The notes: a model not told the origin generated them from the letters alone. Positions 8,604 to 62,012 are shown, numbered from the whole stretch's first letter. The stretch: 63,898 bases of DNA, filler included, from Patellaria atrata CBS 101060 (GCA_010093705.1; 7 parts of 6 records of this genome joined end to end with filler, not necessarily neighbours in it), one strand, 5' to 3'. Made by a program: numbers and translations.

Positions 8604-9140
8604 TCAGGACATGCGACGGTGGGGATTGGATGGTTATGGTATGTAATTAGAATGTAACTTCCCGGTGTTGAATGTGTCGGAGTGGAATTGTCGATAAAAG
8701 CATTCAAAAGGAGAAACCATAAAGAACTGACCTTATCGTTACAGTAGTATATCTTACCTTTAGCTACGTCGGCCATCTCGGGCTTTCAAACGGGGCTGGG
8801 TATGGCCCGCAAGTACTCACATCGTTAACCCCCCGGAGCCAGCCGCCCCTTAGAGTCTTGGTATGCTCGCACTACAGGTCACATTGACTTTGTCTTCACT
8901 CACTCAAGTCTTCACTTATTATCCTGTCTACCTTGTCAACGCGCCGTTTGTCCTCAAACCTCGACTGATTCTGTTTTCATTGTCTCTTTGAATTCTCATT
9001 TTCTTCTTTCTCAACTCCACACTTGAGCATCTCGCAACCCCTACCTCTCGGCCCTCGCATAGTTCTATTGCCATTCAGCTAAGTCGTGAACTGCTCATTC
9101 AAGATTCCTACAAAGACCAACAGCTAGCTCTCAGCTTGCT

Positions 9141-11164: not shown

Positions 11165-13541
11165 TCGACAAAACGACCTTTTGGTCTTCCAACGGGTCAA
11201 GTGACAACCTACTTTCCTTCTGAAACGGCTGCTTCTTATCTCATATGAACTTACGACAATATCCTTCTTTCCCTTGTAGTTCATATGGGATGCGAAGAGC
11301 TTCAACTGTGTCGGCGTCCCGTATCGGTCATATCCATTTTGTTTTCCCTTGTCGATACTAATGAGTTTCTGAATTTTCCTTTTGAGATACCAAGTTTGGA
11401 AGGAGGGAGGGGGGATTTAGTGCTCTAGCTACGGGATGATGGAGTTTCTGGACTGATAGATGTCAGTCACGGTGTTCCGATTTCAAATGATACGGCCTCG
11501 GTTTGAATTTTAAGGTATCAAGAGTCGACTCCCTAGGTTCTCAATATCAAGGGTTGGCGTCTCCGTCCTGATATCAAACGTTAAGATAACGGGTCTGTGG
11601 GTCATGCGACATCATTGACCTCGGTCGCTGGCTCATATCATGCCATGGAGTATCGGTCCCTGGAAATTACGATGATATGGCGACCTTTCAGTCTTCTTTC
11701 TGGACAACGCCCGGATGTATTAGTCTTGCTTTCTCCGTGGCATGTTCCTCAACATTTGCTTTTCATTCGTGTAACTCATAAAAATCTAGTTTGCGTGCGA
11801 CAGAAATGAACAATTGAATGTTCAGCACTTGTCTTTCACGTTTGATTCGTAGAACTACCGTTTAAGCCGGAGTCTGTGACGACGACTGACAATCGCGAGA
11901 TGGATTAATATTCTTGTGATAGTGATCGAGCTGCAGGACCAAAAGTACAATTTCACCATGCAAACATCTTGCTTGTGAAGTGATTTGTGTTCTTCCTACG
12001 CTTTCATGTTTCCGTCTTCAGCGTGATATTTTGTGGATCGTAGTAGAGTTAAAGTTACCGATACCGCGCGCCGAAACCGGTAATGCAGTGTTGAACGTAC
12101 TATATACTTGTCTTGGGTATGATATTAAGGTACTTATTTACAATCCCGAATAAGAGTTATGGGATTCAGCGTCTTCCAAAACCCTACCGTCTACACTGTG
12201 AGTCTGTGAGGTAGAACTACCTTTTAGGCCCCTTTGGGCGCTCGGGTGTCCCCTTAGTGCCTTGTAAAACTGCCCATTTCTTCCTTCTATGTTATTCCTA
12301 CCCAATGTATATTCATGGAGCATATGGAGTATGGGAGAGTACGCGTTAAGAGTTGCGAAATTGAAAGCAAATTATGAGACGTTTCGACTACGATTTGGAA
12401 TTAGAGCAGAATGGAGAACTATACAACAATGAGACAAATTGACAAAGAGTCGTTCAAACCCACTGCTTTGGGTCAAGTCTATGACGGTCTTTACACTTTC
12501 TTTTACCACGTTTTCCGCAAACCTAAACGCAGTAGTAGATCGTAAGAGCCATGGCTAACAGTTCTTTACTGTTTTACTACTGCATTCCGATCAGCTGGAG
12601 TAACCGTATGAGGTGGAGCGCTGTGTACTGTAGTTCTAGAGAGAAGTGATCGAGATCCGGCCCAAGGATTGCGGATTTGACCCCTTCCTTTGGAAACAGC
12701 CCAACGCGCATAACCATCACACGTAACTCTGTGTATGATGGTATCCTTAAGGTGGAGCCCAATAATAAATGACAGTATATGACAAGAGAATGTCCCACAC
12801 TGACATCGTCTCGCAACTGCCAACTGCCAACTGCCCCGTTCGTTAGGTTTGCTTTATCGATAGATCCCCGTCCCAACGTCCTTGTTGCTGGGATTGTCGT
12901 TTGACCTTTAGCAAAAAGACGATTCCGCCGTGCGAACCGGATACAGTAGAGACGAAATTCTTCAACAAGCCTTCAAAACTTCTCCATCACACCCCCTTCC
13001 AGATCAGCGAGAACGTTTGATAAGCAGTTAACGTGTGGGGCACACAATTGAAGCACGTCTTGTTCGCCTTTCCAGTGAATCTAGTCAGCCATTAGTGTGG
13101 CAACCACGAGTCTTCCACCCTTGGTATTCTCCTTCTAGGGCTGGCTCGCAGGGTTCGCAGACAGACCCCTCATCTTTTCTTGACCATAACACCTCCTCTC
13201 ATTTCCCCATCTGAACGTTGATAAAGCTCGGTGCTTCTACACTGCGGACGCTGAAGGCTCCTCGATCGCATTTCCTTGACCTTTACATTCCATTGAACGT
13301 CCCCTATACCGGAATTCTGCTCCCAGCGACATTCGTGCGGCACGGCGCGCTTGAAGTGAACGTGAAGCAGGACTATTTTGCTACAACGCAAAGCTTGCGA
13401 GGGATTACCTTACGACGGTTTGCATATTCGGATTTACCTACATTAGAATCATACAAACGACAACAACGCGTGCGCGCTCTGGTAGAAGGTATAAATTACT
13501 TCGACAGACTTCTCAAAAGCGATTGTGTACACAACGACAAA

Positions 13542-15257
13542 ATGATCAAGGTGTGTACTCTTTCCTTGCGCAACTGTTCTCTGAAGTAAAATAAGTTGAC
13601 TGAGATTATCAGTTCTCGAGGAAGTCGAGGACTTCGAAGATACAAGGAGAAGGATCACGCCATAATTCGATTACCACGAAAGACATTACGGCCAAATTAG
13701 CCCCAAAAAAGGTACGACGTTCAGTGGAAAAGTATTTGCGCCATAATAGGACCTGGAGTTCCTAACGTATATTCACAGATTATTCGGGCACGATATGATT
13801 ACGCTCCTCCAGACTCCGACGGCTATCTGTCGTTCACGAAAGGAGAATTTCTTTCCGTAATCGGTCGTGAAAATGATGACAGTTGGTACGAGGTGTATAA
13901 CGAGAATGGAAAACGGGGTCTCGTCCCGGCGAGATACTTCGAAGATGTCCCGAAAACTGCTACTAGGGATAGTCGAGATTCGAATACTTTTCCTGCAAAG
14001 CTCACAGTCAGCCATGATTCGGGTATACAAGGTATCGAGCCGGAAAAACCGCCTGCAAAGCCGCACATTGCGGTCAAACTCTTGTATAATTTCAAAGCGG
14101 AACGATCAGACGAGTTGGAGGCCAGCGAAGGAGATGTGCTTATAGCTGAGGCGCAATCCGATCCAGAATGGTTTTTATGTAAAACGACATTCGGCGGTGG
14201 CGGACCGGGACTGGTACCTTCTTCATATGTGGAGATCTGGGACAAACAAGGTGTTCCTGTTCCTGACGCCGATCGCGCTGAGTTTATACGACAAGTTGGC
14301 CTTCGCACGATCGAAAAGTGGAAGGAGGATGCCCAACGGTTGAAGGACGGGGCTATCGATCTCCGCAAGGTCACCCCTTCGCAACCCGCCTATCCCGTCA
14401 AGGCGTCAGTGCCTCAATACTATTTTGCAGAAGACATATTTTGGTTCATCGTGGAGTGTCAGATGTCGGACGGCAGCTACTGGGCGCTCTCCCGAGTCTA
14501 TCAAGACTTTTATGATCTTCAGATCCTATTGATTCAGAGCTTTCCCGTAGAAGCTGGCGCCATTGAGGGAACGATACGTACGCTCCCTTATATGCCAGGA
14601 CCTGTTACCTATGTCACCGATGCTATCTCCAAGGGCCGTCGCGGAACTCTGAACGAGTACATCGAAAAGTTATTGGAGTTGGGCTTGCATATCGCCAATT
14701 CAGTCCACGTGAGAAATTTCTTCAAGCCCCGTGAATCGGATTACGAAATCGATCCAAATGTGGACGCTGGGAATAATTTCCGTGACTCCAACGCATCATT
14801 CCCGTCCTATCGCGGAGCCTCGCAAGATATGACTCCTCAAGGAAACCTGCCTCCAGACCAACATTACACCGAGTCTTCCACTATGCTCAATCACCCTACC
14901 ATTGGAACCTCTCAGCCGTACAATGGTCACTCCAGCTTCAGCACACCTGCATTCCAACCCCAATCAAGCACTCTGACACAGAACTCTTCCCAGTCCGCGC
15001 AGAGTACCACTAAGATCAAGGTTTGGTTTAGCGAAGAGAACTGTGTCATCATTCGCATGCCTGCAAACTTTAACTACAATGACCTCTACAAGAAGCTTAT
15101 CGAGCGCCGTAATATGGAAGAGCCGCATCATAATGGAAGGGCCCTGGTAGTCGAGTACAGGGATGAGATGGAGAACCAATACTTTACACTTACGGACGAC
15201 CAAGACCTAGAAATCGCAATGGAGAGAAACCCGAAGTTGACGCTTGTTGTCAGGTAG
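13542..15257 (+). CDS. BEM1: Polarity/NADPH-oxidase scaffold Bem1 (SH3-SH3-PX-PB1), 2 short 5' introns
   Basis: MIK / ..APKK / IIRARYDY..LSFTKGEF..GLVPARYF; LLYNFKAERSDEL..GGPGLVPSSYVEI; PX LSRVYQDFYDLQI..LPYMPGP; PB1 KIKVWF..YRDE. Confidence 0.93.
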
Positions 15258-16688
15258 GACCAACATCGACCGATTGTATAATAGTATCCTACCACCGTGA
15301 AACGTTTCAACATTATTTTATGGACTTATCCTCGATGCGAAGTACACTTTAGATCCCTTGCCATGGATCCAAGGAGAGTGTACTATACGATATCCCGAGC
15401 GTCCCGCGAATCTTTTCTGTTGTTGCACAGTTCCTGTATCCTAAGCGTTACTAATCTGGTTCGTTTTTTATAGTCGTCTGATCAAAGTTGGTAATGGTTC
15501 GAAGTAGAAGAGGAATCCTTTTCGTCTGCACGTGATTGGCACCATGCTCATCTGCCTACGTTAGGGACGTCCTCATCCTGGAGCCAAGTCTTGAGGCCGC
15601 TGAAGACTTTCCGTACAGTACATGGGGCGTTTTCTACTGTTCCGGTGCGCTACTTTGGACGCCATGCTCATGTTTATGGTAGGAGTATAGGGGTTGATGG
15701 GCGTTCTCTATCCAGGTTGATCTGCATCGTATGATGTTATTGAATGAATGAGCGGCAGAATCGGATTGTGTGCATCTTATGAAAAGGGCCAGATCTTTGT
15801 CTCTTTTCTTAATCATCAAAGGAATGGATATACGTGCCTCTGGGAATTTCTCAGGTCATCTCATTGTGAAATTGACTGCTAGCTCTCTCAGGTCGTAGTT
15901 TCCCTTTGTTCTTATCAGTCCATCCGGTGTATCTTTTCTCTCCTAATCTGTACGGAAGCGTGATATGGGATGGAGAGAAGTGATCGGTATCACGGTCGGA
16001 AGCGGGTAGTGGTTCATTCGTGGTGTATTCCAGAGGAAACTCGTGCTGTCTATTTTATTCATCGCTTGCAATATCCTGTTACTTTGGTCTTCCTATTAAA
16101 TGTACTCGGTTCTTTGTTCGTATCGTACACTGGCTTAGCACTCGTTTTTCTACGAGTCGTTAGCGTACCCGTCTCATTATGTCTTCGTTTCAAATATGAG
16201 CCAATCTTATGTCGGAAAAGAGAACCTCTTGGATGATTAATGGGGTGTATTTTTCAGCTGAACCGTGTCTGTAAGATGCGCTAACGACTCATAGAAAATC
16301 GGCTGCTGTTTGCTATAGCGGTGACTTCCAGTGAGGGGAGGAGTGAGCAGTTGACAAACCTGAAAAGTTAATATAGAGATTACTTCCATTTCTGGATTGG
16401 ATTACTCAGGTTTATAGATATAGGTTAGGTACTGGTTACTTCATGTATTGGTTTCTTTTGCACACAGATAAATGAGAAATAGTAAAATTAAGTTCCGTTA
16501 TCCCAGCGATCACCGTGGATAAACAATAGACTATTAATTGGATAAAATATAACCCAACACCGCGGTCAAAGCCTCAAAAGATGTTGAGCAAGCTAATCAC
16601 GCTTGCTCATCCTTCCTCTCTTACATGAGAATCAAAAAGAGAAAGCTACCATGATCAAAAGACTGAGTAGTGAATTTGCAAAAAATGA

Positions 16689-20871: not shown

Positions 20872-21244
20872 TGGCAGATCGTCTTGATGAGTCGGCTTCA
20901 GGTCTGATGTCAGATAGCTGATCCCCGATAGCCTTATGTTGGAAGATCGTCAGGATCTCCAGGAGTTCGTGTTGGAGATCTTCAGAGCTAAATGCTCAGC
21001 TCCGACTTATCGGTTAAGTATCACCAAAACTATAACATTAGCTCACTCTTTTGATGTCATCTCTTATTTTATATCTGACGTAGGTAGTATCGTTATGTTC
21101 GCCTTGATTTGGAGATTACGTAGCTAGGCTTCGTGACGTCAAAGGGTTAATCAATAAGGTGGTCTGTCATTATATAAACACTAGATAGAATCCGTAGTTG
21201 TACGGAGAAGGAAGCGACTACATTCAGTTACCCACAATCTCACA
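20872..21244. mobile_element. LTR (family B), partial, ending ..AATCTCACA
   Basis: Reverse complement of 59285-59495 and 61729-61912. Confidence 0.8.
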
Positions 21245-21499
21245 GAAACGTAATCGCGAGGACAGATTACCAAGAAACGCAGATATCACGGGAATAACTT
21301 GGAAATTTTGAGTGGGAAAGATCCGGGTCTCCATTCTCTAATTGGTCAAAGCATCATCTTTTCTCTCTCCGCTATTGCTTCCCCATAGTATAAGTATGAA
21401 AAATATTCCTGGAACCATAATGTAATGCTTGTCTCATTGAATGGATATCTATAAGATCAACTATATATATACTGTACTTCATCTATATCCTCCTCGGCA

Positions 21500-32404: not shown

Positions 32405-33163
32405 TTACATACAAATGTGGGAATAGAAAATTCGAACAGACAGACATGACTTAATAGCTTGCAATATCGTCCAATCATTCACATCCTTAAGGCCAAGTTC
32501 CTGTATGGGCCCTATCATGTGCCGAAGACCTACTCCTCTGAGTTGCCATATTCTTAACGCTTTATACCCAATACTGATCAGAATATTGGTCAAAACAGCC
32601 CAGTATTGGCGTAGCTTTCCTAAGAAAAGTTAGTATGGTCTCTGAGAATGAAAAAGTGGGGAGTGTACGGATATATCCTCAGCTAAGAAAGCCTGCTCGA
32701 GAGGAGCTTGTAAACCATGTGATCGGGCGATATCGCAGTAACATAACTCGAGTCCTCGGCCCAGTCCACTTCGGATCGCCTTTACAGCATTTCGGAGGAA
32801 ACGTGTTTCCGCCCTCTTTTTGGCGTGCGACTTGCCGTGTATTCGAATGTCGGCATCTACTGGCTCGACGGGATCATAATTGAAATCGCATTCGAATTTA
32901 TAGAATTGGAGCAATGGAACATATGACGGATCCACGGCAACCTCGTAAAACTTGTCGCCAATGCATTTCTGAGCAAGGTAAATTCCCGGCGCAGACCGTA
33001 GTTGGTGCCAACCGGATAATGAACACTCAATTTGGTCTGTTGGAATGAGGCAGAGTCTCCATGGTTTCAGGGAGGCATCCGATGATAGATACGTCGGAGA
33101 ATTAATGACCGAATATACGTTGGGCGATTCGCTATTCAGCATGGCGAAGAAGGCAAGTCTCAC
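32405..33163 (-). pseudogene. Hypothetical protein, probably disrupted
   Basis: 177-aa ORF plus downstream exon; no clean in-frame upstream start. Confidence 0.4.
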
Positions 33164-33536
33164 GGGTAGTGAACTGCAGAAAGCGCGGAAATTTCATGCG
33201 CTTTATCCTCTGCATAGAAGAAGCTGGTAAACATCGACAGAGAGGCCAACAAGAAAGGTAATACTCCGCTCACTTCAAGAGAAGGAAGCAGTTGAAGGCG
33301 ATGACGTCTATAAAGGGGTCAAGATGTGTTGATTTGTTACTTGATCTGTGAGTGGAAGAGCGTAGCGAGCTTATCGTCCGTTTCATCTCTCTATAATCAA
33401 GTTCGGTTTCACGCGTTCAATACACTGTGCCGTACGATCCATGGCGGATGGAGAGAATGCGGTATCCTACACCCACAGGCTCTTTGTGATCAAAAGTACT
33501 CTAAAATCCAGGAAATCGGTGGGTTCCATGTCGTCG

Positions 33537-33720
33537 AACTAAAAGTCGGGGAATCTGTGGATACCTTGTCGAGGTAATCGAACTAAAAGCCGGGAGATCA
33601 GCAACTAAGGGTCGGGAAATCTGCAGGTCCCTTGTCGAGCTAAAAGTTGAGAGATCGACAACTAAAAGTCGGGGAATCTGCACGTCCCTTGTCGAGATAA
33701 AAAGTTAAGAGATCGACAAC
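33537..33720. repeat. ~57-bp imperfect tandem repeat x3
   Basis: aactaaaagtcggggaatctg..ccttgtcgag..taaaag..gagatc recurs three times. Confidence 0.85.
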
Positions 33721-34240
33721 AAATCTGTTATCAGGATAAGCGAACTACAAACCCAGAACTATTATGCCGCAGCTCCATCTAATTAATGTTAGACATTATT
33801 GAGTTTATCGCTTCCCAAATTCTCAAATGCTTTTACGATCACAACTGAAGGCCGACACCCTATCACTAATGCGATAAAGGTGAATCCATTCATCTGGACG
33901 GAGATCTAATATATCAGTGGGTTTCCTGTCCATCTCGTCGACATGCAGAAGCAGGTTTAATTCAGTCGTGGGAGGTTGGGTAGACTGGACGTCTTCATGG
34001 CTAGAAAGACGGCGCTGGAGCATCTTCCCTCACATCTTTGCAGTTGTTAACTCTAGCCGGCGTGGAATTCAGGAGAAAGCGGATGGAGCAAAGCATGTTC
34101 TAGAATTATCTATAGAAATTTTTATCATCATCTCAATATAGATTGGTGAAAATAATTGAAACACATCGATCCTCATTCGAATGCTTTCGAACTTCACATT
34201 CAGCTTTGATTGCGCTAAAGCACAGAGACGCAATATCATC

Positions 34241-35177
34241 CTATGACTCGCCGTCGTAGTACTGGTCCTGTAGCTTTCTCAACTGCGATGACCCACTGCT
34301 TACCTCGCCCGCCTCGCCAGCGACGAGTTTCCCGCTCCAGACCCTATCCCGCTCTTGAAGGATCTCCTCTGCCCAAGCTTTGGTCTCCGGCAGAGACACT
34401 TTGGTTGCCACATAGGTAAACTCGCTGAGGTCGACCCTGCCCCCTCCACGCTTCTCATACTCCACCATCTGAAGAAGGAGTTCTACCTTATCGATATCTT
34501 GGACGAACCGGCTTTCTAGCGTCTCGGAGTCCTCGTGTTCCTGCCATAGAGCACGAATTTCTGTGCCCACAATTGAGGCTCCAGCACCTTGAACGTTTCC
34601 TAATAGGTGTTGTGTAATATAGTCCATAGTCAATGTCTCTCGTCGAATCTTCTCCCTCTTCGGAACCCCGTCCGCAGGTGTAATATCACCCACCAGTAAC
34701 TCGGCCATATCATGGATCAGGCACATCTTCATACACTTAAACAGGTCCAGGCGTGACGTAAGGGACGCGGGGCCGAGCATTGTCATCAGAGACATCCGGT
34801 ACATGTGATCGGCAATTGATTCGCCTCTAAGGGGCCAACAGTTAGTATATGGTACTAGCAAATCCAGGTGACAGTCTCACCCATTGATACCAAACCTTCG
34901 CCATCCCTCACGCTTCGTAGTCTTAAGTCGCTCCAATATGTGGAAGAATGGTACGGGAGAACTTGAATCTTCCATCGGCTTGTCGAAAGTAATAGCAGCC
35001 AGTGCTTTATCTACTGTCCATGGGTTGGATATCTTTGGAGTGATTACGATAGAAGGGTCTAAGGGTAGTTAGTAGGAGCACGAAGATAGATAGCATAACG
35101 CCGATGAGATATAAACCTAGGATCTCCTTGCTGACATTATTAGTACCGGTATCGTCGTTCATTGTGCTCAGCGACAT
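34241..35177 (-). CDS. HD-domain 5'-deoxynucleotidase (HDDC2/YGK1-like), 3 exons, ~274 aa
   Basis: Exons 35177-35117, 35058-34881, 34826-34241 splice in frame; PVPFFHILERLKTTKREGWRRFGI..ESIADHMYRM..CLIHDMAE..GDITP..FVQDIDKVELLLQMVEYE. Confidence 0.92.
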
Positions 35178-35367
35178 GTTACTGGCGTTGTGATAATTCG
35201 ACAAGTGATTTTCTGCCCAGCCTACTCTTGGCGAATCTTTAGTTACTATACCACATTAGACCTAGGTAGTTTCGAGCGATTACCTGCTTCCCCAACCAAC
35301 AAAATCGGATCTTCTATCACGGCGCCGCTTGACATAGAAACACGTATTTAGACCATTTCAAAACGTT

Positions 35368-36762
35368 ATGGAAGTTAATCTATCCCAGTTGGATATGTCA
35401 CCGCTTCCATTCCTGCATTTAATGCAGGAACTCAAGCACATGGATAGGACTGGCTGGTTGAGAACGGTCCGGAAGCCTGAGAGCGTGGGAAGTCACAGCT
35501 TTCGATTAGCACTTCTGGGTGGTTTCGCGCCGGTTGGTTCTGCTTTTCATTTTCATTTTCTATTTGCTGACCTAGTAGTGTATAGGATCCTTTGGATCGG
35601 AGGAAGTGTATGTTTATAGGACTGTGCCACGACTTAGCAGAATCAGTAGTGGGAGACATACCAACATATGCTGGTATGTCTAAAGGTAAGTAGGTAGATT
35701 TTTTCTTTAATCGCTACTAATTGAGTGATATGTGTTAGAGCGGAAGCATAAACTAGAATTCTTTGGCTTCCGGTATATTATATCGTTGGTAACGCCTTGC
35801 AATGCAAAATATGCGGACGAGATGATGACCGCCTGGTTAGAGTATGAAGAGGGCAAGACTGCAGAAGGTCGGTGGATGAAAGAGATGGATAAATTAGAAT
35901 GCTTGATACAGGCACACGAATACGAACAGAAGACGTATGGGGAGAAGAACCTCGAAGAATTTCAGGGACTCTCATCAAAAATTAAATCTCCCGAGGGAAT
36001 AGCGTGGTTAAACTTATTAGGACAAGAGAGAAGCGCTCATCTCTCAAAACGAAAACGGCGGCTCCCTGTCATCTTCATCACTGGTATGTCCCGAAGGTCC
36101 TAACTGTCTTCGGTGCTAAGTAGTATAGGTGCCCTAAGTGTCGGCGAGACACAATGCGCTCTTTTGTCCCAGGAGTTTGGATTTCAGTACATATCCTTGC
36201 AGAGTGTCCTGCGTGAAATGTCTGAAGACCAGACATATCTTCACGCAGAGTTCGTGAGAGATTGCCTGAAGGAGGAAGTCGATGTTCCGGTGGGTTTGGT
36301 AGTTAGCTTGCTTGAAGGGAAGATTGAAGAAGGCATAAATGAAGGAACGCGGTGGAGCCTAGTCCATGGATTTCCGAAGAGCATGGAACATGTTCTTGAG
36401 TTTGAAAGAAAGGTTAGTATCCCTACTCCCGATAGCATCTTACTAAAACTAGTAGGCCCAAAAACCTAACTACACACTATTTCTGAACTGCTCCGCAGAA
36501 GAAAAGCGTGTTGGAAACCCGAAGCAATATTATGGGGCTGATGATGAACTAGACGGGTGGAAGACTGGGGGTTTAGATCTCAAGGATTACTTAAGATCAA
36601 TGGAGGGATATTTCAAGGAGGTAAGTAGAGCGTAACAAAAAAAACGAGTCATGTACTGATTGCATGTCGCAGATAAATTGCGATGGATCTGTGGCAGAGG
36701 TCTTTAACTTAGTGAAGAATGCAGTCAACGATTTTATTGAATATGCAGAGAGGGAGAAATAG
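35368..36762 (+). CDS. HD-domain phosphohydrolase fused to a UMP-CMP/adenylate kinase-like domain, 6 exons, ~382 aa
   Basis: Exons 35368-35532, 35586-35685, 35739-36083, 36129-36412, 36456-36620, 36673-36762 give an open frame; LKHMDRTGW..ESVGSHSFR..CHDLAESVVGDI..DKLECLIQAHEYE; then VIFITGALSVGETQC..FGFQYISL..LVHGFPK..INCDGSVAEVF. Confidence 0.85.
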
Positions 36763-36914
36763 GACTCTATGCTTGCGTTTGCTAAGTACATAACGAAATC
36801 CACCAGGCGTACAAAAAGAACACGGGTTCAAGTTGTCTCCGGCAATTTATAGCAGCTACCGAGATAGTTATGCGCTCAGTCCAAGTTCCTCGTGAAACTG
36901 TCAACACTTGGCTC

Positions 36915-38724
36915 CTAATGGAAGTCGTCTACCTTTGAATCGTTAATACTTGCAAACATCAATGAGCTTACTGTTAACGCAACACTGTTTGGATTCCCGT
37001 CCTCGTATAAGTCTGATGCCTTCCGACCGATCAAACGATCCTGTTCTATCCACTGGTAAGATTCTGAGAATGACTTAAGATTTTTAGTTACTCACTCAGC
37101 TTCGACACGTACGATTGAAGCGCTTTCATAGAGATCACAATCGTATCGTTATTATCTACCAAATCCATCGATTTTTGGCTATCCCAATTTAGAGTGAGTG
37201 GCTGTTGTCCTACCGAACAGTGGTAATGCCACAACAAGGAATTACAAGAGGCGACCATTTCGTCAATAAGGGCTGTTGGCATAGATGGATGTATCCAAAA
37301 TCCGCCCTTCGATAGTTAATGATTCTAGTTCCCTCAAATGCAGGAATGGCCTTACAGAGTCTCTGTAACGTCTCCAGTAGATGTTCCTCCCTGCATCCAG
37401 CTCACGAACATGCAGGAGGAGGAACACAGCCAAAGTCCCAACTACCCACATACGGCGGTCTCTCTTTTCTAATATGACATGAAGAGCTTTTAAGATCTTC
37501 TCATCTAAATCAATTATATGTAACTCAAATAGGTGGCCTAGTTGGTTTTGGACCATACGTGGTACCGGGATAGTGTCGTACCATGCGGACTGTTTATCTT
37601 TAATGGTGGCCATCCCCAGAGTTTCCTCACCAGAAAATCGCCATCCAATGCGAATAAGGCGAAGAGTCGTATACATCTCTAGACAATCTCGTATGATTGA
37701 AACCTTGACAAATTAGCAACCGACTTATAAAGTTCGGGAAATGCTCACCTCGTTATGATAACGTGCAAGTTGGAAGAAGAAACTAACTGGATGTTGCGAC
37801 TGACATACTTCATCCATTGCAAAGCTAACGCACGCCCTGATATATAACGAGATATCAATATTGTTGTTCGCTACGCAATACGCGGTAGTCTTTGTCCAGT
37901 GCCAGCCAGACGAATTCTTTCTGAGTGCGTGAATCTGGTAACTCTGGGTTGGGGTAAATTTACAGCAAGCGACTTTCAGAGTAGGACCATCGACATAATG
38001 TTGTAACTGGGCTACCTTTTGGTCTTTCAACGAAGTCTGAATTACAGTTGTGAATAGAATTTGGTATGTTTCATCTTTCCCTGTAATATTATTAGCTCTA
38101 TTATGGAAGTAACGTAAATTAGGTAGTAGAGGACATTTTTGGAACGGCTTATGCAATGTTACGCGCTCCGAGGTACAAATGTACGCCGGGATATCGAATT
38201 TAATGCATCGGAGGCAGCGAGAATCTCTTACGCTAGAGGGTTCTTTCTCGCACTATACTAACGTTAATCTGGTTCAAGTTGCGATTCACTTAAAGACATA
38301 CTTTTTTCCTCGCTACCCAACACTTTATGCACAGTTTGGACTTTCTATCAACTCGTGCGAGACTTTGTGTAGAAGGCAATTGTTTGACTCCAGAAAGATA
38401 CTCCGTATGATGGTCTTGAGGCTCCGGCGGTAAGACTACGCTAGCTAGGGGATTGGTGGCGGAGAAGGCTGCAGAGTTGTATGTGTTTAAGGAGAGAGCT
38501 GTGTTGGCGCTATGATGTTCAATCCTTAGATGTGTTGTAAGGTCTTGGCCATCAACTAAATATCCAGGACGAGTTGAATCTAAAGAAAGGTCGGAATCAT
38601 TCTTTGGTCCCAAAATTGCGGTTGTAACTTGACCCTCCCCTACAACATCCCAATTGAAATCGCATAATCCCGTGACTAACGCACCCGCGTGCGTCCAAGT
38701 ATTTTCATAATTTCCCTCATCCAT
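36915..38724 (-). CDS. Zn(II)2Cys6-like transcription factor, multi-exon
   Basis: CIKCWVARKK|CEKEPSSVRDSRCLRCIKFDIPAYICT across an intron; C-terminal exons IPVPRMVQNQL..LAVFLLLHVRE..LLWHYHC; start uncertain. Confidence 0.7.
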
Positions 38725-40582
38725 ACTTCTCGTAGGATGCCGATCGAATGTTATCACCACACGACCTTAGTTCATGGATGGTAAAGCGCACAATATATTG
38801 GAGGGATCAATGGTTTAGGAGGAGCTCTTGTTATGACGCAGCAGCCCACAAATCCACTTAGGAGTGTGAAGTGAGAACAGAATTTTGACACAAGTTTGTG
38901 AGGAGGAACATGACAAGAGGTGGATAATTGGAGATTGGATGGGAGGAGGGGAATGAGACAAGGGATAACAGGCAGGGAGTAAACGAGCAGTGATGATATT
39001 GGAAATGAGGAAGCAGAAGGAATCGAAACTGAAAGAAAGGGAGCATTTTCGATGGTCAAGGGAAGTGGAAAGGGTGGGAGGATTTCAATAAAGCCGCAGT
39101 TGCTTAGTCAAACAACCCTACCCGAAGGAGAATAACGACACTTGTGGAAGATCTATTAAGCACTATAGGCGTGTACCTGGGTGTTAAGTTTACATGTTTA
39201 TTTCGAATCTTGTTCTCTGGAAATTTGTTACATTCCTATTACTATCTGGCTGATCGCGACGTCTTCAACCAAGGTTTTAGTTTAACCAGCGTCCCATTTT
39301 GAAGGAGCCCTCTTCTATAGCCTGTACTGTATAGAAACTAGCTAGGGCTGGGTGGATCACTTCTCTCAATCTCCAACGTTTCTCTTATACGCAGATATGA
39401 TGAACTGAGATGCATACTTAGCTGAGTCAACTCTGCATGCACACGGCGAGCTTGTTGTACCAATAAAACTGGAGCAGTGAAGGAGTCAGAACCTTAAATA
39501 AGGATAGTACATTGGTTATTTAGAATCTCAGTCCATAACCCTTTTCGTTCTCTTGTAATACGATCTCTTGGTCGTATCGCACTGGGCGGGTGAAATGTGA
39601 GGGAACAAGCTTAAGCCAATGTTCTTCCAGTTAAAAGAAGTAATACGTTGGTTGACCCTTCCAAAGATGCACGTTTCCGATTCTTACTTGTCTCGTCATT
39701 CCATTCTCCACCTTCCAGCACGTAACCCGCTTTAAGTCTCCTCTCCGGCGATTGATGTACGATGTTCCGGGCTGGCTTCTTGTATAATGAGAGAAAGTAG
39801 CGAGGGCTGCGGATTGCGCCGGGATGCATCCGTTTTGATCCTCTTATTCATTGACGGCCAGATCATCGTGCAGTTCATAGTTCTCGTCATCCTAGACCGT
39901 GTATTTAGTTAGCAACGTCACCCCTGGAAGTTGAAAAACGGGACACACTGCTTCTGACGCTGGCCGCTAATAGATTAGTGGGTCTTTCACCATTGCATTA
40001 CCCTCGGAACGAAGTAACAGCTCCGGGGTTTGCGAAGCTGAAGATCGGGGGAAGCTGGTTACATTGTGCTTGGGGCTTTTTGAAACCCCCCTGGACGGAC
40101 TGATGGTTCTGATTCATTGGCGCTACCTGCGAGGTGGAGTAACGTTGGTGGCGATGGTAACTCGAAAGCAAGGCGTCGAGATTTCCATAGCCTTGCCGAC
40201 GCGTCTTTTTAATATTGGCGAGAGGAGATCCCCCTAAATTGATCAGGCCGATCCAACAATGTGTGGCTTGGAAACCATGTCGAACCTATTCCCAGGACAA
40301 GCCGGATCATAACTCATTTTAGGAGCGTTGCATAGTACTACCCTACCAGCAGTCAACGCTTTACTGCAGGAGGTATTTGTCATAAAGGGCGGGATACTAT
40401 ATTAACGAATGGTGGCTGCATCTACATATCGCTTGCGGAGACGGTTATGATGGTTTACGGCGCAAAGGAGCAGATGAGAACTGGATGCTATGAATTGTTA
40501 GATTATTTTAAGTGACCGTAGTAGACCTCTTTCTCCCCTCGCTCTACTTCAAGAACTAACTTCAGTCAACTTTTATGTAGCA

Positions 40583-44272: not shown

Positions 44273-45902
44273 CAGCTAGAACACGCTTTCGCTTGCGGTT
44301 TGAGGCAGGTTGAGCGAACCGCTTCGCCTTGCGGATAGTCTCTGAGCGCAACTGCATCTTGATACCATCGAAGATGAAAGGGTGCGCTTTATAAATGAGG
44401 GGGACGGCTTAGATGAAAGATGAGGTGGACGTGGCGGGATGGCTCGGCGTTGTGCCAAGATAATAGAATCAACGTACTGAGGTAAGGTATCCCTGTTCGC
44501 GCAGATATATCTGAAGAAGTTCACGGCAAGCGCTCACAATGTGCGTAACGCTTCGGAATCATTCTTGAGTTCATAATAAATCAACAGAAAAAAAGAAAAG
44601 ACCGAAAATCCTCACCTCCTATGGGCCTAGTTCTAATAGGGAGTTCTGCAGCTAGAGGGTCGATACGGTTAATTTTGTGTTAGCTATCATCTCCTCGTAT
44701 GTAGCGATCCTCAGTATGAAAGTGAGTAATAATATCATGGAAGCCGCGAATATCGCTGACAATGCTAACAGAGACCTGCAAAAAGGACGCTATCATCGAA
44801 TTGAGGGATACTTACCGATGGTGGGACCGCGAAAATGCTGCACATTATAGACGTATCGCTCTACGTAGGAATACCACTCTATGCATGCACATGTGCGGCG
44901 GCACCCAAGAATGACTATATGTCCTCTATATCTGAGACGCAAGGGAGGATGCTCCTGGAAGAAGGCACGTTTCGACCCACGCTTGTGAGCAAACACGGGA
45001 GGAAGGGTCGATAATTGGATAGTTGGGGTGAAAGAGGGGAGGGTTCTATGGTCGGGATATGCAACGTCAAAAGCGGCAGCTGCTTAATCGGGCAGGTTTT
45101 AGATACATCCATCTAGGCCAGTAGCTTTATTGACGAAACGTTCGCGTCTTGCACTCCGTTATTGTGGCATTATCACTGTTCCAGTAGGAGAAGAAAGCCA
45201 CTCTCTCTGGATTAGGGCAAAAATCAAAGGATTGTTAGGCAATGACAAATAACTGTGACCTAGAGGCACTTCAAACGTACGGATTCAAGCTAAGTGAGTA
45301 GCTGAGAATGTCTTATCGTCCTCAAAACCTCGTCAATGAACGGAACACGCTGATTTAATCGGCCGGAAGGTGCTAGACTTTATTCGAGGACGGAAATACA
45401 GCAATCATGGAAGGTTGTAACGTAAGCGAGTCCTCCTTCGAGCCTACATAGCATATCTGCCGCCCAAATCGCAATAGTTTGGGCCTTTCGTTCCTTCCGC
45501 CCTCCGTGGAGCTTAGATGCTTGAATCAGAGTTTCGGACAGCCAGCAGCACTCCATTTGGATGACCACTATGACCCTGAATGCTCTACTAGCCACAAGTC
45601 CAGCGGGTGACTTATCAAAGAGGTAGTCATGAAATACGACGAAGAGTAAAGGGGACACTCCAGGCTAGACTAACTCTATTACGCAGCAATGATCCTCCAT
45701 GTCCTAACTCACACGCTGCCACAAAGGATCAAGGATTCCCAGAATTTCAGAATAAGCGGGTGCACTTTCCCGAGCCGTAGTAAGCAGGTCTGGGCAGAGG
45801 TTCTGTACGTGTATATAAGGCATAGAACCTGAAATCCGCGACGCAAACTTCCCTTCCACAAATTTTCGCCCCTTGCAATTCAGTCAAATCTCATACACCA
45901 GC

Positions 45903-46577
45903 ATGGCCAAGCTCGCGAATCCCAGTCCAGCAAGTCTAATCCCATTCGTTTCTCCGTCTGGATATCCGAGTAGTCGACTTCAAGACAGGTCAATCAATTA
46001 CTCGCTTTCTATTGCAAACTCCGACGGGGACACGAGTATGTGACAGCTTCTCACAAAAGATTTCTTTGCAGCTAACTAATAATCCATAGCATGTGCATCA
46101 TATAATATCGCCAATCAACTCCACGCCCATACTCCTTCGGCGGTCTCTCCAAACGGACCCGGTAATGAAGTGATTCATTATTGCCGGTTCACGGTTCCAA
46201 AAGAGACGGAAGTCACTGTCACAATAGTTCGCTGTCCACACGGGTCTGCATTCTTGACCGAGGGGGTGACTGACGCTCAGCGTCACAACGTCACCAAAAT
46301 CTCTCCAGACAGGTATCTGTGGATACAAGCGCGCGCTACGTGTGGAGAAAAGCCGCTCTCAAGGCGACGCGGAAGACCAAGGCGTCGTATTCGCGAACTG
46401 TGGACTGAACAGGAGATTGAATGCATGAAGAAAATAAAGAATAATGTAACTGAGGGCAATGGAATGGACTGGGATAGCATTTGCAAGAAGTTTCCAGGGC
46501 GAACTGGCCCTGCTGTGAAGACACGGTACTTACTCAACGCAATGCTCTTGAATCTGGCAAATGAGAAGGGCTCTTGA
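45903..46577 (+). CDS. Small AT-hook plus Myb/SANT-like protein, copy 1
   Basis: MAKLANPSPAS.. exon, intron, then RRRGRPRR and WTEQEIECMKK..MDWDSICKKFPGRTGPAVKTRY; 3' end may be spliced. Confidence 0.6.
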
Positions 46578-47050
46578 TATGAACTCTTTGATATCGATTT
46601 TCTTTTGTCTGCGTTTATCAACTGCTTCCCTAGAGATTTTACTAGTACACTATCCCAATTTCTATCGTATTTCGAAGTATACTTTGCAATCCTACTTTAC
46701 TCAACTCTGCCAACTCAGCAGATGGTTTCAACACCGCGATAATCGGAACGATAAGACCAAGAGCCATGCAACCCTGCCTACTCGAAAGCGAGATATACAG
46801 GATTTACTGTGGGCCAGCTGAAGTACATAGTGTCATGAAAACACAATAATTTAGGCGTACTCATTGTGAACAAGGGTTATGGTTAGAATTAGGAAGGCGC
46901 TTACGCGGGCGCTTGCGCAGATTTATCAGTTCTAGTTTCCAAGAACTTGAAACCGCAAAAACGTTTCGTGAAACAAGGTTCTTACCGTTCTCAGTAGAAA
47001 CGCGCTTAACTGAACAATGTGTTCAACAGTTTAACCCAAAATCAAGAGCA

Positions 47051-47490
47051 ATGAAGGTAAAGATGCCTAATAGTGCTATTTTCCAGTGCGCAGCTTGCAA
47101 AACTACTTTTAAAAGAAGATGGAATCTTCGACAGCACGAGAAGACTCACTTACTCGAGCGGACGCGATATAAGTGCGATGAACAGGACTGCACTAAAAGC
47201 TTCCTTAGAAAAGAGGAGTTAACGCGACATATCAACACAGTAAGTAATGTTTGTCGAGATAAGCAACAAACTAAATATAATATATTTCTTTTATACAGGT
47301 CCATCTAGATAGAGAATTTCCGTTTGAATGCCGAAATTGCGGAAAGAAATACAATAGAAGTGATACTTTATTAAGGTAGGCTTCAGTATCAGTTAAATAG
47401 TATAGATAATACTAATTAGATAGACATTTTAGAAACATCTGCTCACATATATCTAAGGTGGAAGTGAAAATCGAATTACACGAGTCTTAA
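47051..47490 (+). CDS. Small triple C2H2 zinc-finger protein, 3 exons
   Basis: FQCAACKTTFKRRWNLRQHEKTH; YKCDEQDCTKSFLRKEELTRHINT|VH; FECRNCGKKYNRSDTLLR|HFRNIC. Confidence 0.75.
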
Positions 47491-49054: not shown

Positions 49055-49295
49055 GGGGTAGCTATGAAATACAACGAACAGACTGAACCTATTGATCCTC
49101 CATGCCCCTAATGGGATCGAGGATTCCTCAGCATTTCAAAAAAAAAGTGGCTGAACTTTGCCGCGCCGTAGGAAACAGGCGCTTGGCAGAAGTTTTGTGC
49201 GTATATATAAGGCACAGAACCTGCAAGCCGCGACACAAATTCCCCTTCCACAAATTTTCACCTCTTCTAAATCAGTCAGGATTTCATATACCAGC

Positions 49296-49975
49296 ATGGC
49301 CAATCTCGCGAACCCCAATCCAGCAAGCTGGATCCTACCTGTTTCTCAGTATGGAGATCAGAGCAGTGGTAGAATTCACGACAGACCAATCAATTGCTCG
49401 CCTTCTACTGCAAACTGCGACGGGAGCACGAGTACGTGTCAGCTTATCGCAACGATTTCTTTACAATTAACCAATAGTCCATAGCTTGCGCATCACATAG
49501 TATCAATCAGTCCCCCGACCAGACCCCTTTGGTGGTCTCTCCAAGCGGACTGTGCAACGAAGTGATCTCTTATAGCCGGGTCATGGTTCTAAAAGACACG
49601 GAAGTCATTACTACAGTAGTTCGCTGTCCAATCGGCCCTGTATCCTTGATGGAGACGGTGACTGACAGTCAAAGCCACATTGTTATCAAGGTCTCTTCAG
49701 ACAAATGGCTGCTCATATAAGGGCGTAGGACGTGTCCAGAAAGGGGGGTAGATACGGCGCAAAGAGAAGAAAAAAGATTACCGAGGCGACGAGGCAGACC
49801 AAGGCGTCCTATCAACAAGCGATGGACTGAAGCCGAGCTTTTATGCATGAAGCATATGAAGATGGGAGTACATGAGGACCATGGAGTGGACTGGGAAAGC
49901 ATTTACAAGGAGTTTCCTGAGCGATCTCCCGCTGCCGTGAAAGCACGGTACTACTTAACGCAATGCTCTTGATTA
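49296..49975 (+). pseudogene. AT-hook plus Myb/SANT-like protein, copy 2 (in-frame stop)
   Basis: Diverged duplicate of 45.8-46.6 kb; RRRGRPRR..WTEAELLCM..VDWESIYKEFPERSPAAVKARY; TAA at 49718-49720 where copy 1 has CAA. Confidence 0.6.
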
Positions 49976-50172
49976 AGGTAGCAGGGAAGGACTTTGGACC
50001 TTACCTCTTTGATATCTACGTTCCTTTGTCTTAGTACATCCAACTCTTCTCTGGTAGTGCAAAGGAAATCAGAGGTAGTGAGTAGTCGTTCGAGGCCACA
50101 GAAGCGGGTAGTGATTTTACTACTATAATACTCCAATCTTTATCGTAATTCCAATTTATCCTTTTATTGAGA

Positions 50173-50879: not shown

Positions 50880-51109
50880 CTGTCATGGCTTAACCTCAGA
50901 TGAAAGCTGAAAGGTATATTGTTGTATGTACATGAAGCTTAAACTTAAGGAAAGAAAGTGTCGAGACAGCATATGCTATTCTACTAAAGTACAGTGTGAC
51001 TAAGCCGCTGGGTCATCCAAGGCACTTATACTTATCGGGTCTAACTCGTGACAAGTACCCTTTCTCTCGTCGAGCGTCGAGCACCGATCACTTCAATTAC
51101 GTGACCTCT

Positions 51110-51204
51110 TGTTAGATGGTGGAGCTATCGGGGTGTTGATTCTTGTGGTAACCAGGGGTAGTGAGCTAGTCGCTTATACCACCACAATTACGGTATCGTC
51201 GTAA
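51110..51204. mobile_element. LTR terminus (family C), starting TGTTAGATGG
   Basis: Identical to 54248-54341; both truncated by gaps. Confidence 0.75.
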
Positions 51205-51304
51205 NNNNNNNNNNNNNNNNNNNNNNNNNNNNNNNNNNNNNNNNNNNNTTAATTAATTAANNNNNNNNNNNNNNNNNNNNNNNNNNNNNNNNNNNNNNNN
51301 NNNN

Positions 51305-52874
51305 TTTCTTTATTTAAATTTAATAAAATATTTATTTTATATTAAATTTTATAAATATCTTTATTTATTAAAAATATATTAATATTTCTTTAATTAAAAG
51401 TAATAAATATTTATTCTTTTTAATAATATTATTTAACTTTTTATAATTAATATATAATTTTTAATCTTTTTTTAACTTTTTAATAAATAATATTAAAAAT
51501 ATATATAATATCTTATTTAAAATAATAAATTTCTTTTAAAAATATTATTTTAAATAATTTTTTATTAATTATAAATATTTAATAAATATATTATATAAAA
51601 AATTAATAGTAAAATTATTATTTTAATTTAATATTATATTATAATCTATATTTTCTCTAAATAATAATAATTTATTAAATATAAATTTCGAGAATATTTA
51701 AATTAAATAATAATATTTTTTAAATAATTTTTTATAAATTATTATTTTATAAATATTTTTATTTTTATTTAAAAAATTTTATCTTTTAAAAGTTAATTTT
51801 ATATTAAAAAGTTAATTTTATATAAATTTATAATATTTATAATAATATTTTTATATTTTATATTTTTTAAATAATTTTCTCTATTAATTAAATAAATATT
51901 TATATAAATTTTAATAATATTAATTTATTTATTTAACTTTAATTTTAATTTTTTAAAAAATTTTAATATTTTTCTTTTTATTAAATTTAATAGTTTTAAT
52001 TTTATCTTTTAAAGATTAAAGTTAATATTTTTAATTTATAAATTTAATTATTTTTATTAAAATAATTATAATTTTTTTCTTTAATTAATTAATATTTTCT
52101 ATTAATTATATTTTTATTTATTAATAATTTTATTTTATTATTTTAAATTAAATTAATATTATAAATTAATTATTTTCTTTAATTTATATTTAAAAATTAT
52201 AATATTTTATTATTAATTTTTTATTTCTAATATTTATAATAGTTAAAAGATAAATTTATATTAATAATTTAATAAATTTTTTATTTTAAAAATTATTTTT
52301 AATTAATTAATAAATTATTATTATTTATATTTATTATTAATATTAATATATATTATTAATAATTTTTAAATATAATATTTTCTTTAAATATCTCTTTAAT
52401 TAATATTATTATAATATTATTAAAAGTTATAATATTAATATATTATTTTATTTTTTTTATTTTAATTTTAAAATATTATTTAAAAATTAAAAGTTATTTT
52501 TTATATAATAAAATATATTTTTAAATTTTAATATTAATTAATACTTTTAATTAAATTATAATATTATTATTTAAAATTTATTATAATTTTATAAATAATA
52601 CTTTATTAATTAATTTATTAATTAATATTTTTATTATTTTTATTATTAATTTTAATATAAAGTATTTATTTAAAGTTTATTATTTTTTAACTTTTAATTA
52701 TTATTTAATATAATAGTTAATTTAATATTATTTTTTTAAATTATTTTAAATTTAATAATTTTTTTTAATAATTTATAATTTATTTTTTAATAATTTATTT
52801 TATTATAATTAAAATATTTTTTTATAAATTTATATATTATTATTATTTTAATTTATTAAATTATTATAAATATA
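51305..52874. repeat. Extremely AT-rich, fully RIP-eroded repeat relic
   Basis: Almost no G/C over 1.57 kb yet not a simple tandem repeat. Confidence 0.7.
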
Positions 52875-52974
52875 NNNNNNNNNNNNNNNNNNNNNNNNNN
52901 NNNNNNNNNNNNNNNNNNTTAATTAATTAANNNNNNNNNNNNNNNNNNNNNNNNNNNNNNNNNNNNNNNNNNNN

Positions 52975-53346
52975 AACCTGGCGTCGACGTACAGGAATCA
53001 GAAGCGGTGGAAGGAAGCCGAAGATCTGGAGGTGCAAGTCATGGAGACGAGCAAGAGGGTACTTGGAGATGAGCATCCAAACACGCTGACCAGCATGGCC
53101 AACCTGGCGTTGACGTACAGGGATCAGGGGTGGTGGAAGGAAGCCGAAGAGCTGGAGGTGCAAGTGATGGAGACGAGGAAGAGGGTGCTGGGGGACGAGC
53201 ATCCAAACACGCTGACCAGCATGGCCAACCTGGCGTCGACATACAGGAATCAAGGGCGGTGGAAGGAAGCCGAAGATCTGGAGGTGCAAGTGATGGAGAC
53301 GAGCAAGAGGGTGCTTAGGGTGCTGTCAAGAAGCATTGCCAGATGA
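52975..53346 (+). CDS. C-terminal TPR array (42-aa repeats) of an NLR-like gene; 5' part lost in gap
   Basis: Near-identical 126-bp repeats (starts 52975, 53101, 53227) encoding NLASTYRNQGRWKEAEDLEVQVMETSKRVLGDEHPNTLTSMA. Confidence 0.88.
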   Translation, partial: NLASTYRNQKRWKEAEDLEVQVMETSKRVLGDEHPNTLTSMANLALTYRDQGWWKEAEELEVQVMETRKRVLGDEHPNTLTSMANLASTYRNQGRWKEAEDLEVQVMETSKRVLRVLSRSIAR

Positions 53347-53553
53347 AGCATAGATGGATCAACAAGCAAGGACGAGTTCGTTCCTTAATGCAGCGGCAGA
53401 TGGCACACAGTGCCAGTCAACCAAGGCAAAAAGGATATGCATGCCAGTGGTTTTTCAAGACCGGTCGCCGGCAGAATATCTTGTCAGACGGCTAAATCCC
53501 GATAGCCTTCTTTTGTATCTGATAAAGTTAGTATCTGTCAGACTAAACATCCT

Positions 53554-58724: not shown

Positions 58725-59284
58725 CGTAATAACTTAGACTGAATGAGAGACTTGTTTTCTTATAGCTCTTACGAAATACTCATGCAAACTAGAAACATTA
58801 AATGTGCCTCAATATTACTATGCAGTACATGAGCGTTGACATAAGGATAGGTTTGTTAGAAGTCAAACCAACGAGGACTATTATATTTGTCATCTAATTA
58901 ATTGGGAACCTATATACTGGATGAAGAGGAAGAAAACCAATCACGGAAGCAGAAACTGTCAAATAAACGAATGGAAACATGAGTTGGGCTATAATTGAGG
59001 AACTTTATACCAACTCTGTCAGTTGTAAGCATAGCATGAATGATGCTAAAGAGATGATACCAGGTATGATGCCAGAGACACTAGAGAGGAGATGGTGTCA
59101 TCAAAGAGGTGATATCAAAGATGGTTATGCTAAAGCGACGATATCAAAGATAGTAATGCCACTTGAAACTTTCCCGTAGTACCGTTCTGTATTTCTAAAG
59201 TGACAAAATATTGGGTAGGGAGCGCTCTAGATGGGATATTGTTTGCCATTTGAATTATAAACGGCGTTGGTGAGTGGGTGATTT

Positions 59285-59495
59285 TGTGAGATTGTGGGTA
59301 ACTGAATGTAGTCGCTTGATTCTCCGTACAACTACGGATTCTATCTAGTGTTTATATAATGACAGACCACCTTATTGATTAACCCTTTGACGTCATAAAG
59401 CCTAGCATTTAGCTCTGAAGATCTCCAACACGAACTCCTGGAGACCCTGACGATCTTCCAACATAAGGCTGTCGGGGATCAGCCATCTGACATCA
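59285..59495. mobile_element. LTR family B, internally deleted and truncated
   Basis: Matches reverse complement of ~20904-21244 minus ~130 bp. Confidence 0.8.
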
Positions 59496-61728: not shown

Positions 61729-61912
61729 TGTGAGATTGTGGGTAACTGAATGTAGTCGCTTGATTCTCCGTACAACTACGGATTCTATCTAGTGTTTATA
61801 AAATGACAGACCACCTTATTAACCCTTTGACGTCACGAAGCCTAGCTACGTAATCTCCAAATCAAGGCGAACATAACGATACTACCTACGTCAGATATAA
61901 AATAAGAGATGA
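61729..61912. mobile_element. LTR family B terminus, starting TGTGAGATTG
   Basis: Matches 59285 onward and reverse complement of ~21056-21244. Confidence 0.8.
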
Positions 61913-62012
61913 NNNNNNNNNNNNNNNNNNNNNNNNNNNNNNNNNNNNNNNNNNNNTTAATTAATTAANNNNNNNNNNNNNNNNNNNNNNNNNNNNNNNN
62001 NNNNNNNNNNNN

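Follow-up and report, generated by a model that had tools for sequence, protein, structure and literature searches.

Do two HD-domain genes and a putative transcription factor gene that lie side by side in a fungal genome make up one functional unit and, if they do, of what kind? The question is raised by positions 34241-38724 of a 63,898-nucleotide stretch of DNA (filler included) from Patellaria atrata CBS 101060 (GCA_010093705.1), which was analysed as a whole and is called the window here. The first of the three genes, g1, encodes a stand-alone HD_3 protein; the second, g2, encodes an HD_3 domain fused to a domain derived from uridine/cytidine monophosphate (UMP/CMP) kinase; the third, g3, encodes a Zn2Cys6-like factor with a KpeA domain. 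We consider it probable, if only just, that the three genes form a (deoxy)nucleotide monophosphatase unit that is linked to a regulator and conserved in Pezizomycotina. The state of the catalytic motifs and the recurrence of the neighbourhood in other fungi carry this reading and are presented first.

Gene models, HD domains and the kinase-derived half of g2

The trio is intact, and every gene splices into an open frame through GT..AG introns of 43-58 nt with CTAAC/CTAAT-like branch sites (Table 1). The spliced models of g1 and g2 are identical, letter for letter, to the deposited proteins P0001 and P0121. The three intact genes, the 190-bp divergent spacer and the motifs IHDMAE and CHDLAE, all given in a preliminary description of the locus, are thereby confirmed. 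We presume this spacer to be a shared promoter. The stop codons of g2 and g3 are separated by 152 bp. Contigs from two DNA runs of one study match 34000-38520 with zero differences, and these runs may come from the sample behind the window's own assembly. Both read as DNA, with introns and spacers covered and no splice joints.

Both HD domains match HD_3 (PF13023) far beyond its curated cut-off of 22.5 bits. The profile scores 166.4 bits on g1 (E 6.6e-49), the third exon of which alone reaches E 2e-41, and 110.1 bits on residues 20-170 of g2 (E 1.4e-31), where all three HD-encoding exons match. The solved relatives that top both searches are yeast YGK1 (5yox; E 1.1e-38 for g1 and E 7.3e-37 for g2 residues 13-191) and human HDDC2 (4dmb). 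The metal-site motifs of g1 (DHMY, IHDMAE, DIDKVE) and of g2 (SHSF, CHDLAE, EMDKLE) fall in the same columns of 5yox. The H...HD...D metal ligands are retained in both domains, as is the Asp eight residues past HD, so that the earlier assignment of both genes to the YGK1/HDDC2 type holds. The two proteins share only 33% identity and are therefore old paralogues. As described in the available part of PMC8177086, YGK1 and YfbR are mononuclear-metal deoxynucleoside monophosphate (dNMP) monophosphatases, the YGK1 site being formed by H61, H89, D90 and D159; the available part of PMC5098729 gives dCMP, dUMP and dTMP as the preferred substrates of the Trypanosoma brucei homologue. All HD matches were YGK1/HDDC2/YfbR-like, with no SAMHD1 or dGTPase chain matched by g2 (E<=0.01) or by g1 (E<=0.001). 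A SAMHD1-like depletion of deoxynucleoside triphosphates (dNTPs), as suggested earlier, fits poorly because the solved relatives are monophosphatases.

The C-terminal half of g2 tells of a different enzyme. The ADK profile matches exon 4 (E 1.8e-6) and, on the protein, residues 211-313 (PF00406; E 7.9e-7), with a score of 29.8 bits that is barely above the cut-off of 26.8; the match begins at profile position 11, past the phosphate-binding loop (P-loop). Residues 196-374 align with residues 14-202, almost the whole, of yeast uridylate kinase 1uky (E 1.9e-15), and the phmmer alignment begins only at TQC. A closer inspection revealed that three defining kinase features fail. The P-loop region reads GALSVGE, without Lys, and departs from GxxGxGK(G/T). 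The Arg of GFPR, a residue for binding the NMP phosphate, is replaced, and in none of the 31 GFP-bearing proteins among P0121-P0157 is GFP followed by Arg. The LID Arg and DD(N) residues have a catalytic role in UMP/CMP kinases. The LID place of g2 is EEKRVGNPKQYYGADDELDG, where they are missing, and two distant fusions (P0190 and P0202) have R..SGRIDDN/TRIDDN...KR..TF there. The kinase half of g2 is therefore not classed as a nucleoside monophosphate (NMP) kinase. The HD/NMP-kinase fusion of the preliminary description stands as a fusion, its kinase as a competent enzyme does not, given these three losses.

These losses are derived, because the distant fusions of Blastomyces percursus (P0190) and Alternaria atra (P0202) keep GGPGVGKGT, GFPR and GR/TRIDDN. 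In the fusions of named lichen-forming fungi and of Trematosphaeria the P-loop is kept and GFPR is not; the P-loop is intact in P0149 as well. The proteins of P. atrata, Lojkania, Z. tritici, Penicillium, Diaporthe, Niveomyces and Colletotrichum have neither. The kinase-like domain is 83% identical (156/187) between P. atrata and Lojkania enalia, and the HD domain 84% (163/195). The kinase half of g2 is thus a conserved pseudokinase, since identity to Lojkania is this high despite the loss of catalytic motifs. On the evidence of its motifs, the domain is a descendant of UMP/CMP kinase that is predicted to be catalytically dead in P. atrata.

The g2 fusion is a family across Pezizomycotina. At E<=1e-30 an exhaustive profile search gave 57 representatives, each standing for a cluster at 50% identity, and at least 34 of the best 150 matches span the HD/kinase junction, judged from their match ranges. 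By genus, the named members are spread over Dothideomycetes, Lecanoromycetes, Sordariomycetes, Eurotiomycetes and Leotiomycetes. P0190 and P0202 combine HD_3 with a fully canonical UMP/CMP kinase and are 34-38% identical to g1 and to the HD domain of g2 alike. They may represent a bifunctional nucleotidase/kinase lineage from which the pseudokinase series probably set out.

The convergent third gene had been recognised earlier as Zn2Cys6-like, which is upheld; the model then given for it is not, as a fifth exon (37045-36915) is needed. The deposited model P0158 (220 aa) covers the C-terminal part only and leaves the cysteine cluster outside, and the present analysis corrects it by adding the predicted DNA-binding half that it misses. 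Exon 38252-37749 probably holds a further, in-frame intron of 54 nt (38134-38081), the removal of which would give a protein of 520 aa. It is proposed because, in a comparison with homologues, its removal brings back the conserved 'FQKW'. Zn2Cys6 clusters are spaced CX2CX6CX5-12CX2CX6-8C, and the last Cys spacer of g3, X9, is one residue over this rule. In an alignment, six full-length homologues share these cysteines. Pfam Zn_clus passes in one homologue, P0164 (24.6 bits against 21), with no match in four other full-length homologues; in the window's g3 the motif is split by an intron. PF27566 (KpeA) is precomputed on P0158 and on 22 of 22 homologues among the matches listed, and the region contains the invariant motifs PVPRM...H..E and F..LH.RE.D..R. 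KpeA of Aspergillus oryzae acts on conidiation as well as on kojic acid production. In the available part of PMC11121810, Aspergillus oryzae KpeA is described as a conserved Zn2Cys6 protein and a global regulator, the loss of which raises kojic acid and lowers brlA, abaA and wetA expression. The open KpeA literature searched, as far as its text was available, mentions no HD gene alongside KpeA.

Upstream of g3, the contigs of the two DNA runs fragment at 38483-39000, where another contig is identical over 38483-38520 only and departs from there on, and a variant copy with 3 changes and 2 indels covers 38879-38995. Because the contigs break and a variant copy exists there, the genome seems to hold further copies of the sequence at the g3 5' end and upstream of it.

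Table 1. Positions of the three genes and of their diagnostic motifs in the window.
Feature	Position	Strand	Details
g1, stand-alone HD_3 (YGK1/HDDC2-type) gene	34241-35177	-	Exons 35177-35117, 35058-34881, 34826-34241; 274 aa
g1/g2 divergent spacer	35178-35367	.	190 bp, ATG to ATG
g2, HD_3 + UMP/CMP-kinase-derived fusion	35368-36762	+	382 aa, six exons
g2 exons	35368-35532, 35586-35685, 35739-36083, 36129-36412, 36456-36620, 36673-36762	+	Spliced model
P-loop relic ALSVGETQC	36131-36157	+	Active relatives GPGxGKGTQC; Lys and two Gly gone
GFPK replacing GFPR	36368-36379	+	Aligned to LIDGFPR of 1uky and 1tev
g3, Zn2Cys6 + KpeA-domain factor	36915-38724	-	ATG 38724, stop 36915-36917; convergent with g2
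g3 exons	38724-38302, 38252-37749, 37703-37356, 37306-37096, 37045-36915	-	538 aa
Zn2Cys6-like cluster CX2CX6CX11CX2CX9C	38175-38331	-	Residues 132-167; 49-nt intron 38301-38253 inside
KpeA domain region of g3	36918-38080	-	Beta sheet, then helical bundle

Recurrence of the neighbourhood in other fungi

Metagenome contigs were scanned for loci with a g2 relative, and 25 were found, which fall into 16 groups at >=95% DNA identity. One group (L024/L025) had partial or distant HD matches only and was set aside, leaving 15 to be counted. A g3 homologue adjoins the g2 homologue in 8 of these. It lies convergently downstream of g2, as in the window, in five groups (L007, L009, L013, L019, L022), upstream on the strand of g2 in two (L002, L003) and beyond a g1-like gene in one (L011). 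The seven groups without a visible g3 (L001, L008, L014, L015, L017, L018, L020) each reach no more than 1.5 kb downstream of g2. Relatives of g2 and g3 are also found on equal-sized contigs in P. atrata, Zymoseptoria tritici 1A5, Niveomyces insectorum and Usnea florida. Co-occurrence elsewhere had been set beforehand as one test of the proposed module, and with the eight adjacent pairs and these same-contig pairs the proposal came through it.

A g1-like gene is found divergently upstream of g2 in L011/L012 and in L014, with 55-74% identity by tblastn segment and spacers of ~260-340 bp as estimated from the first matched residues. Four g1 relatives in ENA lie on contigs equal in size to those of ENA g2 relatives. 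The g1-like partner was seen only beside a g2 with a degenerate P-loop, namely in 2 of 5 such groups and the window against 0 of 6 groups with an intact P-loop; these numbers are small and the groups related. The conserved core is g2 with g3, and g1 is an optional third member.

The g1 search covered proteins of 106-340 aa, and the best 120 of its 1804 matches were placed in a FastTree phylogeny of 131 rows, together with three locus partners and, as outgroup, eight g2 HD domains (one fragment was dropped). In it, g1 groups with others in a 23-row clade that has a Shimodaira-Hasegawa-like (SH-like) support of 99. All partners with visible context are included in this clade, that is the g1-like proteins of L011/L012/L014 and the four ENA proteins paired with g2, whereas it contains none of the named Sordariomycete HDDC2 proteins. 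Judged by genus, those of the best 120 that bear a name are, besides P0001, all from Sordariomycetes. Transfer of g1 from a Sordariomycete was considered and not adopted, because the search spans 106-340 aa and the best 120 of 1804 matches.

In the 350 nt upstream of g2, TGCGGGGT or its complement is present in 7 of the 15 regions (L001-L022), often as TGCGGGGTCGGAT. As a cis-element shared between the window and these loci it was dropped, being absent from the window's module and its g1/g2 spacer; it may be a lineage-specific cis-element or reflect shared ancestry. Other regulators were also seen near the pair. A Gti1/Pac2-family regulator lies at 14620-15237 of L003, ~5 kb from the g2 homologue, and the 944-aa model P0134 of Kuettlingeria erythrocarpa merges a Gti1/Pac2 regulator with a g2 homologue. 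C2H2 zinc-finger open reading frames (ORFs) are found near the pair in L002 and L003, and at 46850-47305 in the window.

A regulator-linked nucleotidase unit and the alternatives to it

From the gene structures, motif states, conservation and synteny described above, the following activities, regulation and physiological role may be proposed. Transcription of g1 and g2 from their shared spacer would be driven by g3. Both HD proteins would dephosphorylate (deoxy)nucleoside monophosphates, probably those with pyrimidine bases, and the kinase relic could act as a nucleotide-binding module, either for substrate recruitment and choice or for allosteric control. The unit would thereby lower or clear particular (d)NMPs on demand. 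In the P. atrata lineage a second HD_3 paralogue, g1, would have been added and would share the promoter region of g2.

Several points weigh against this reading. Adjacency to a transcription factor is not proof of regulation. The eight groups are not eight independent events, because several may be close kin, and the pairings in ENA were judged by equal contig size and not by DNA. Besides the window, no more than 2 of the 15 groups have a g1-like gene beside g2, which reduces the three-gene module of the preliminary description to a core of g2 and g3 and takes from g1 the place of a constant member. No Lojkania or Z. tritici protein is among the best 120 of 1804 g1 relatives, and the g1 tree was built from these 120 with FastTree only. 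Finally, the window holds 19 one-mismatch matches to TGCGGGGT, against 25.6 expected, and none within 34000-39000.

If the monophosphatase unit is real, its interest lies in the pairing of activities, as HD 5'-nucleotidases and UMP/CMP kinases work in opposite directions on the same nucleotides. A fusion family in which the kinase has repeatedly been killed and its fold kept shows an enzyme turning into a non-catalytic module. Moreover, the linkage to a KpeA-type factor is a lead on the role of fungal HDDC2/YGK1 paralogues and on the signal to which the KpeA family responds. The domain families are known and the proteins deposited; we came across no other description of how the kinase motifs were lost by degrees, nor of the KpeA linkage. 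The titles and abstracts searched, with subscription journals outside their range, held no account of an HD/UMP-CMP kinase fusion in Pezizomycotina.

The alternative that survives best is that g2 and g3 form a sensor-regulator pair, in which the dead kinase domain would sense nucleotides and act on g3 directly or via a partner. The output of g3 as a transcription factor would then reflect the status of pyrimidine nucleotides, with the HD activity either secondary or serving to reset the signal. Enzyme-derived sensors do act on fungal transcription factors, as Gal3 does with Gal4 and NmrA with AreA. The constraint on the kinase fold after catalysis was lost is in keeping with such a role, as are the persistence of the g2-g3 linkage through three arrangements and a gene model of Fusarium sp. 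Ph1 in which an HD_3 domain of another subtype is joined to a KpeA domain. However, the linkage is explained equally well by plain regulation of a neighbouring target. The structural evidence comes from the predicted model of the g3 homologue P0164 (predicted local distance difference test score, pLDDT, 80.8; predicted template modelling score, pTM, 0.78). The two best structural matches of its C-terminal domain are the sterol-binding domains of Upc2 (4n9n, Z 9.2, 179 residues aligned; 7vpr, Z 7.6, 143 residues aligned), scores that lie in a range common for helical bundles and make the likeness a lead only. A Foldseek search of the same model against the PDB gave nothing at E<=0.001, and weak nuclear-receptor rows with template modelling scores below 0.2. 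Taken together, we regard a sensor-regulator pair as unlikely. Its fuller form, in which the g2 relic would be a pyrimidine-nucleotide sensor and g2-g3 a nucleotide-sensing transcription switch of filamentous ascomycetes, is distinctly unlikely; if true, it would tie KpeA-family regulators, so far linked only with development and secondary metabolism, to nucleotide status.

A cluster for the biosynthesis of a nucleoside analogue, or for self-protection against one, along the lines of cordycepin and pentostatin, is improbable. The precedent is a close one in its parts. According to the available part of PMC8869658, Cns2 is an HD-family phosphohydrolase and the N-terminus of Cns3 a nucleoside/nucleotide kinase, and the cordycepin cluster further comprises an oxidoreductase (Cns1), an ABC transporter (Cns4) and, within Cns3, a HisG domain. 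The solved relatives of both HD domains include 1xx7, an 'oxetanocin-like protein', and fungal metabolite clusters typically have a Zn2Cys6 factor of their own. The kinase domain of the window's g2 is dead, however, and the loci share only g1-g3 and one uncharacterised ORF. No Cns1-type oxidoreductase, HisG or ABC or other transporter, and no core synthase, was found among the 55 window ORFs of >=110 aa, a set which intron-split genes could escape. Nor was an oxidoreductase, HisG, transporter or synthase found in the 85 flank ORFs scanned (of 150 ORFs of >=120 aa in ten homologous loci), where Pfam matched only scattered C2H2, Gti1/Pac2, protein kinase, rhodopsin and gag families. A cordycepin-like pathway is therefore unlikely, and the earlier statement that this is not simply a cordycepin cluster was reasonable.

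Highly improbable, in our view, is the proposal that the trio is cargo of a large mobile element, spread horizontally and used for nucleotide depletion or analogue detoxification under attack. It would agree with the character of the window beyond ~16 kb, where few ORFs match any family and reverse transcriptase, RNase H and repeat copies are present. It would also agree with the scatter of named g2 matches over genera of five classes, with the 84% identity of g2 between P. atrata and Lojkania enalia, and with the Sordariomycete names among the best 120 of the 1804 g1 relatives, although a search restricted to 106-340 aa could hide other lineages. Starship-like elements carry a DUF3435 tyrosine-recombinase 'captain' and have element ends. 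No recombinase of this type had a Pfam match among the 55 window ORFs, though the window may end inside an element, and a repeat scan of the window found no terminal repeats bracketing the trio; repeats in inverted orientation occur at ~21 kb and 59-62 kb and have the look of ordinary repeat copies. The flanks of homologous loci have one uncharacterised ORF in common with those of the window and otherwise differ, and the solved HD relatives are not dNTP triphosphohydrolases. The mobile, degraded cargo of the preliminary description thus finds no support.

That a housekeeping HDDC2 gene, an unrelated fusion and an unrelated factor are neighbours by chance is the least probable account and was already disfavoured: short-spaced divergent pairs are common in compact fungal genomes, but g2 and g3 adjoin in eight groups with three arrangements and co-occur in four named genomes, and a divergent g1-like partner appears again in L011/L012 and L014.

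The remaining observations concern the surroundings of the locus. Ordinary core genes (Vps36/EAP30, SAC3/GANP and an SH3-PX protein) occupy 5000-15300, and the window contains 648 N in total. Just downstream of g1 lies an ORF of 187 aa (32633-33193, minus strand) without a Pfam family. Its relatives (E down to 9e-23) are found near g3/g2 homologues in L022/L023 and L003/L004, and more weakly in L002/L005/L006; in the ESM Atlas it fell below the recognition threshold, with only unnamed bacterial clusters. This ORF could be a fourth gene with a loose link to the trio, or else a member of a multi-copy family. Between this ORF and the g1 3' end, 33499-33700 holds four copies of a 41-nt unit (66-100% identity), 38-66 nt apart. 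Inverted copies with 95-100% identity link 20905-21248 to 59282-59495 and 61725-61912, ~38-40 kb away; the latter two are direct copies 2444 nt apart, beside reverse-transcriptase and DUF7924 ORFs (61332-63507). These repeats are probably long terminal repeats of a retroelement. A direct duplication (45790-46631 and 49182-50052; 71-84%, ~3.39 kb spacing) takes in the region of a Myb-like ORF, with ORFs for C2H2 and RNase H alongside. Lastly, 51000-53352 comprises an extremely AT-rich stretch (GC fraction 0.03-0.13) and, after it, three 126-nt tandem units encoding TPR_10 repeats (52975-53352).

Comparison with known systems

The regulator-linked monophosphatase unit can be set beside five known systems. 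Like YGK1 (YGL101W, 5yox), HDDC2 (4dmb) and Escherichia coli YfbR, g1 and the N-terminal half of g2 match across the whole HD domain. Unlike these enzymes, g1 has an N-terminal extension of ~50 aa and g2 a C-terminal, kinase-derived domain that none of the solved enzymes possesses. Compared with the UMP/CMP kinases Ura6 (1uky) and CMPK1 (1tev), g2 keeps TQC, the LR of the NMP site, the VP motif and GFP, whereas the P-loop Lys and Gly, the GFPR Arg and the LID GRxDDN are lost. With Cns1-Cns4 of Cordyceps militaris, compared by description, the locus shares an HD phosphohydrolase and a nucleotide-kinase domain in one neighbourhood; here, however, the two domains are in one protein and the kinase is dead. 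The yeast sterol sensor Upc2 is, like g3, a Zn2Cys6 factor with a helical C-terminal domain, but the sequence identity is 6-8% and the beta-sheet part of the KpeA region lies outside the alignment. Finally, g3 resembles A. oryzae KpeA, compared by domain and not by orthology, in carrying PF27566 behind a Zn2Cys6-type cluster.

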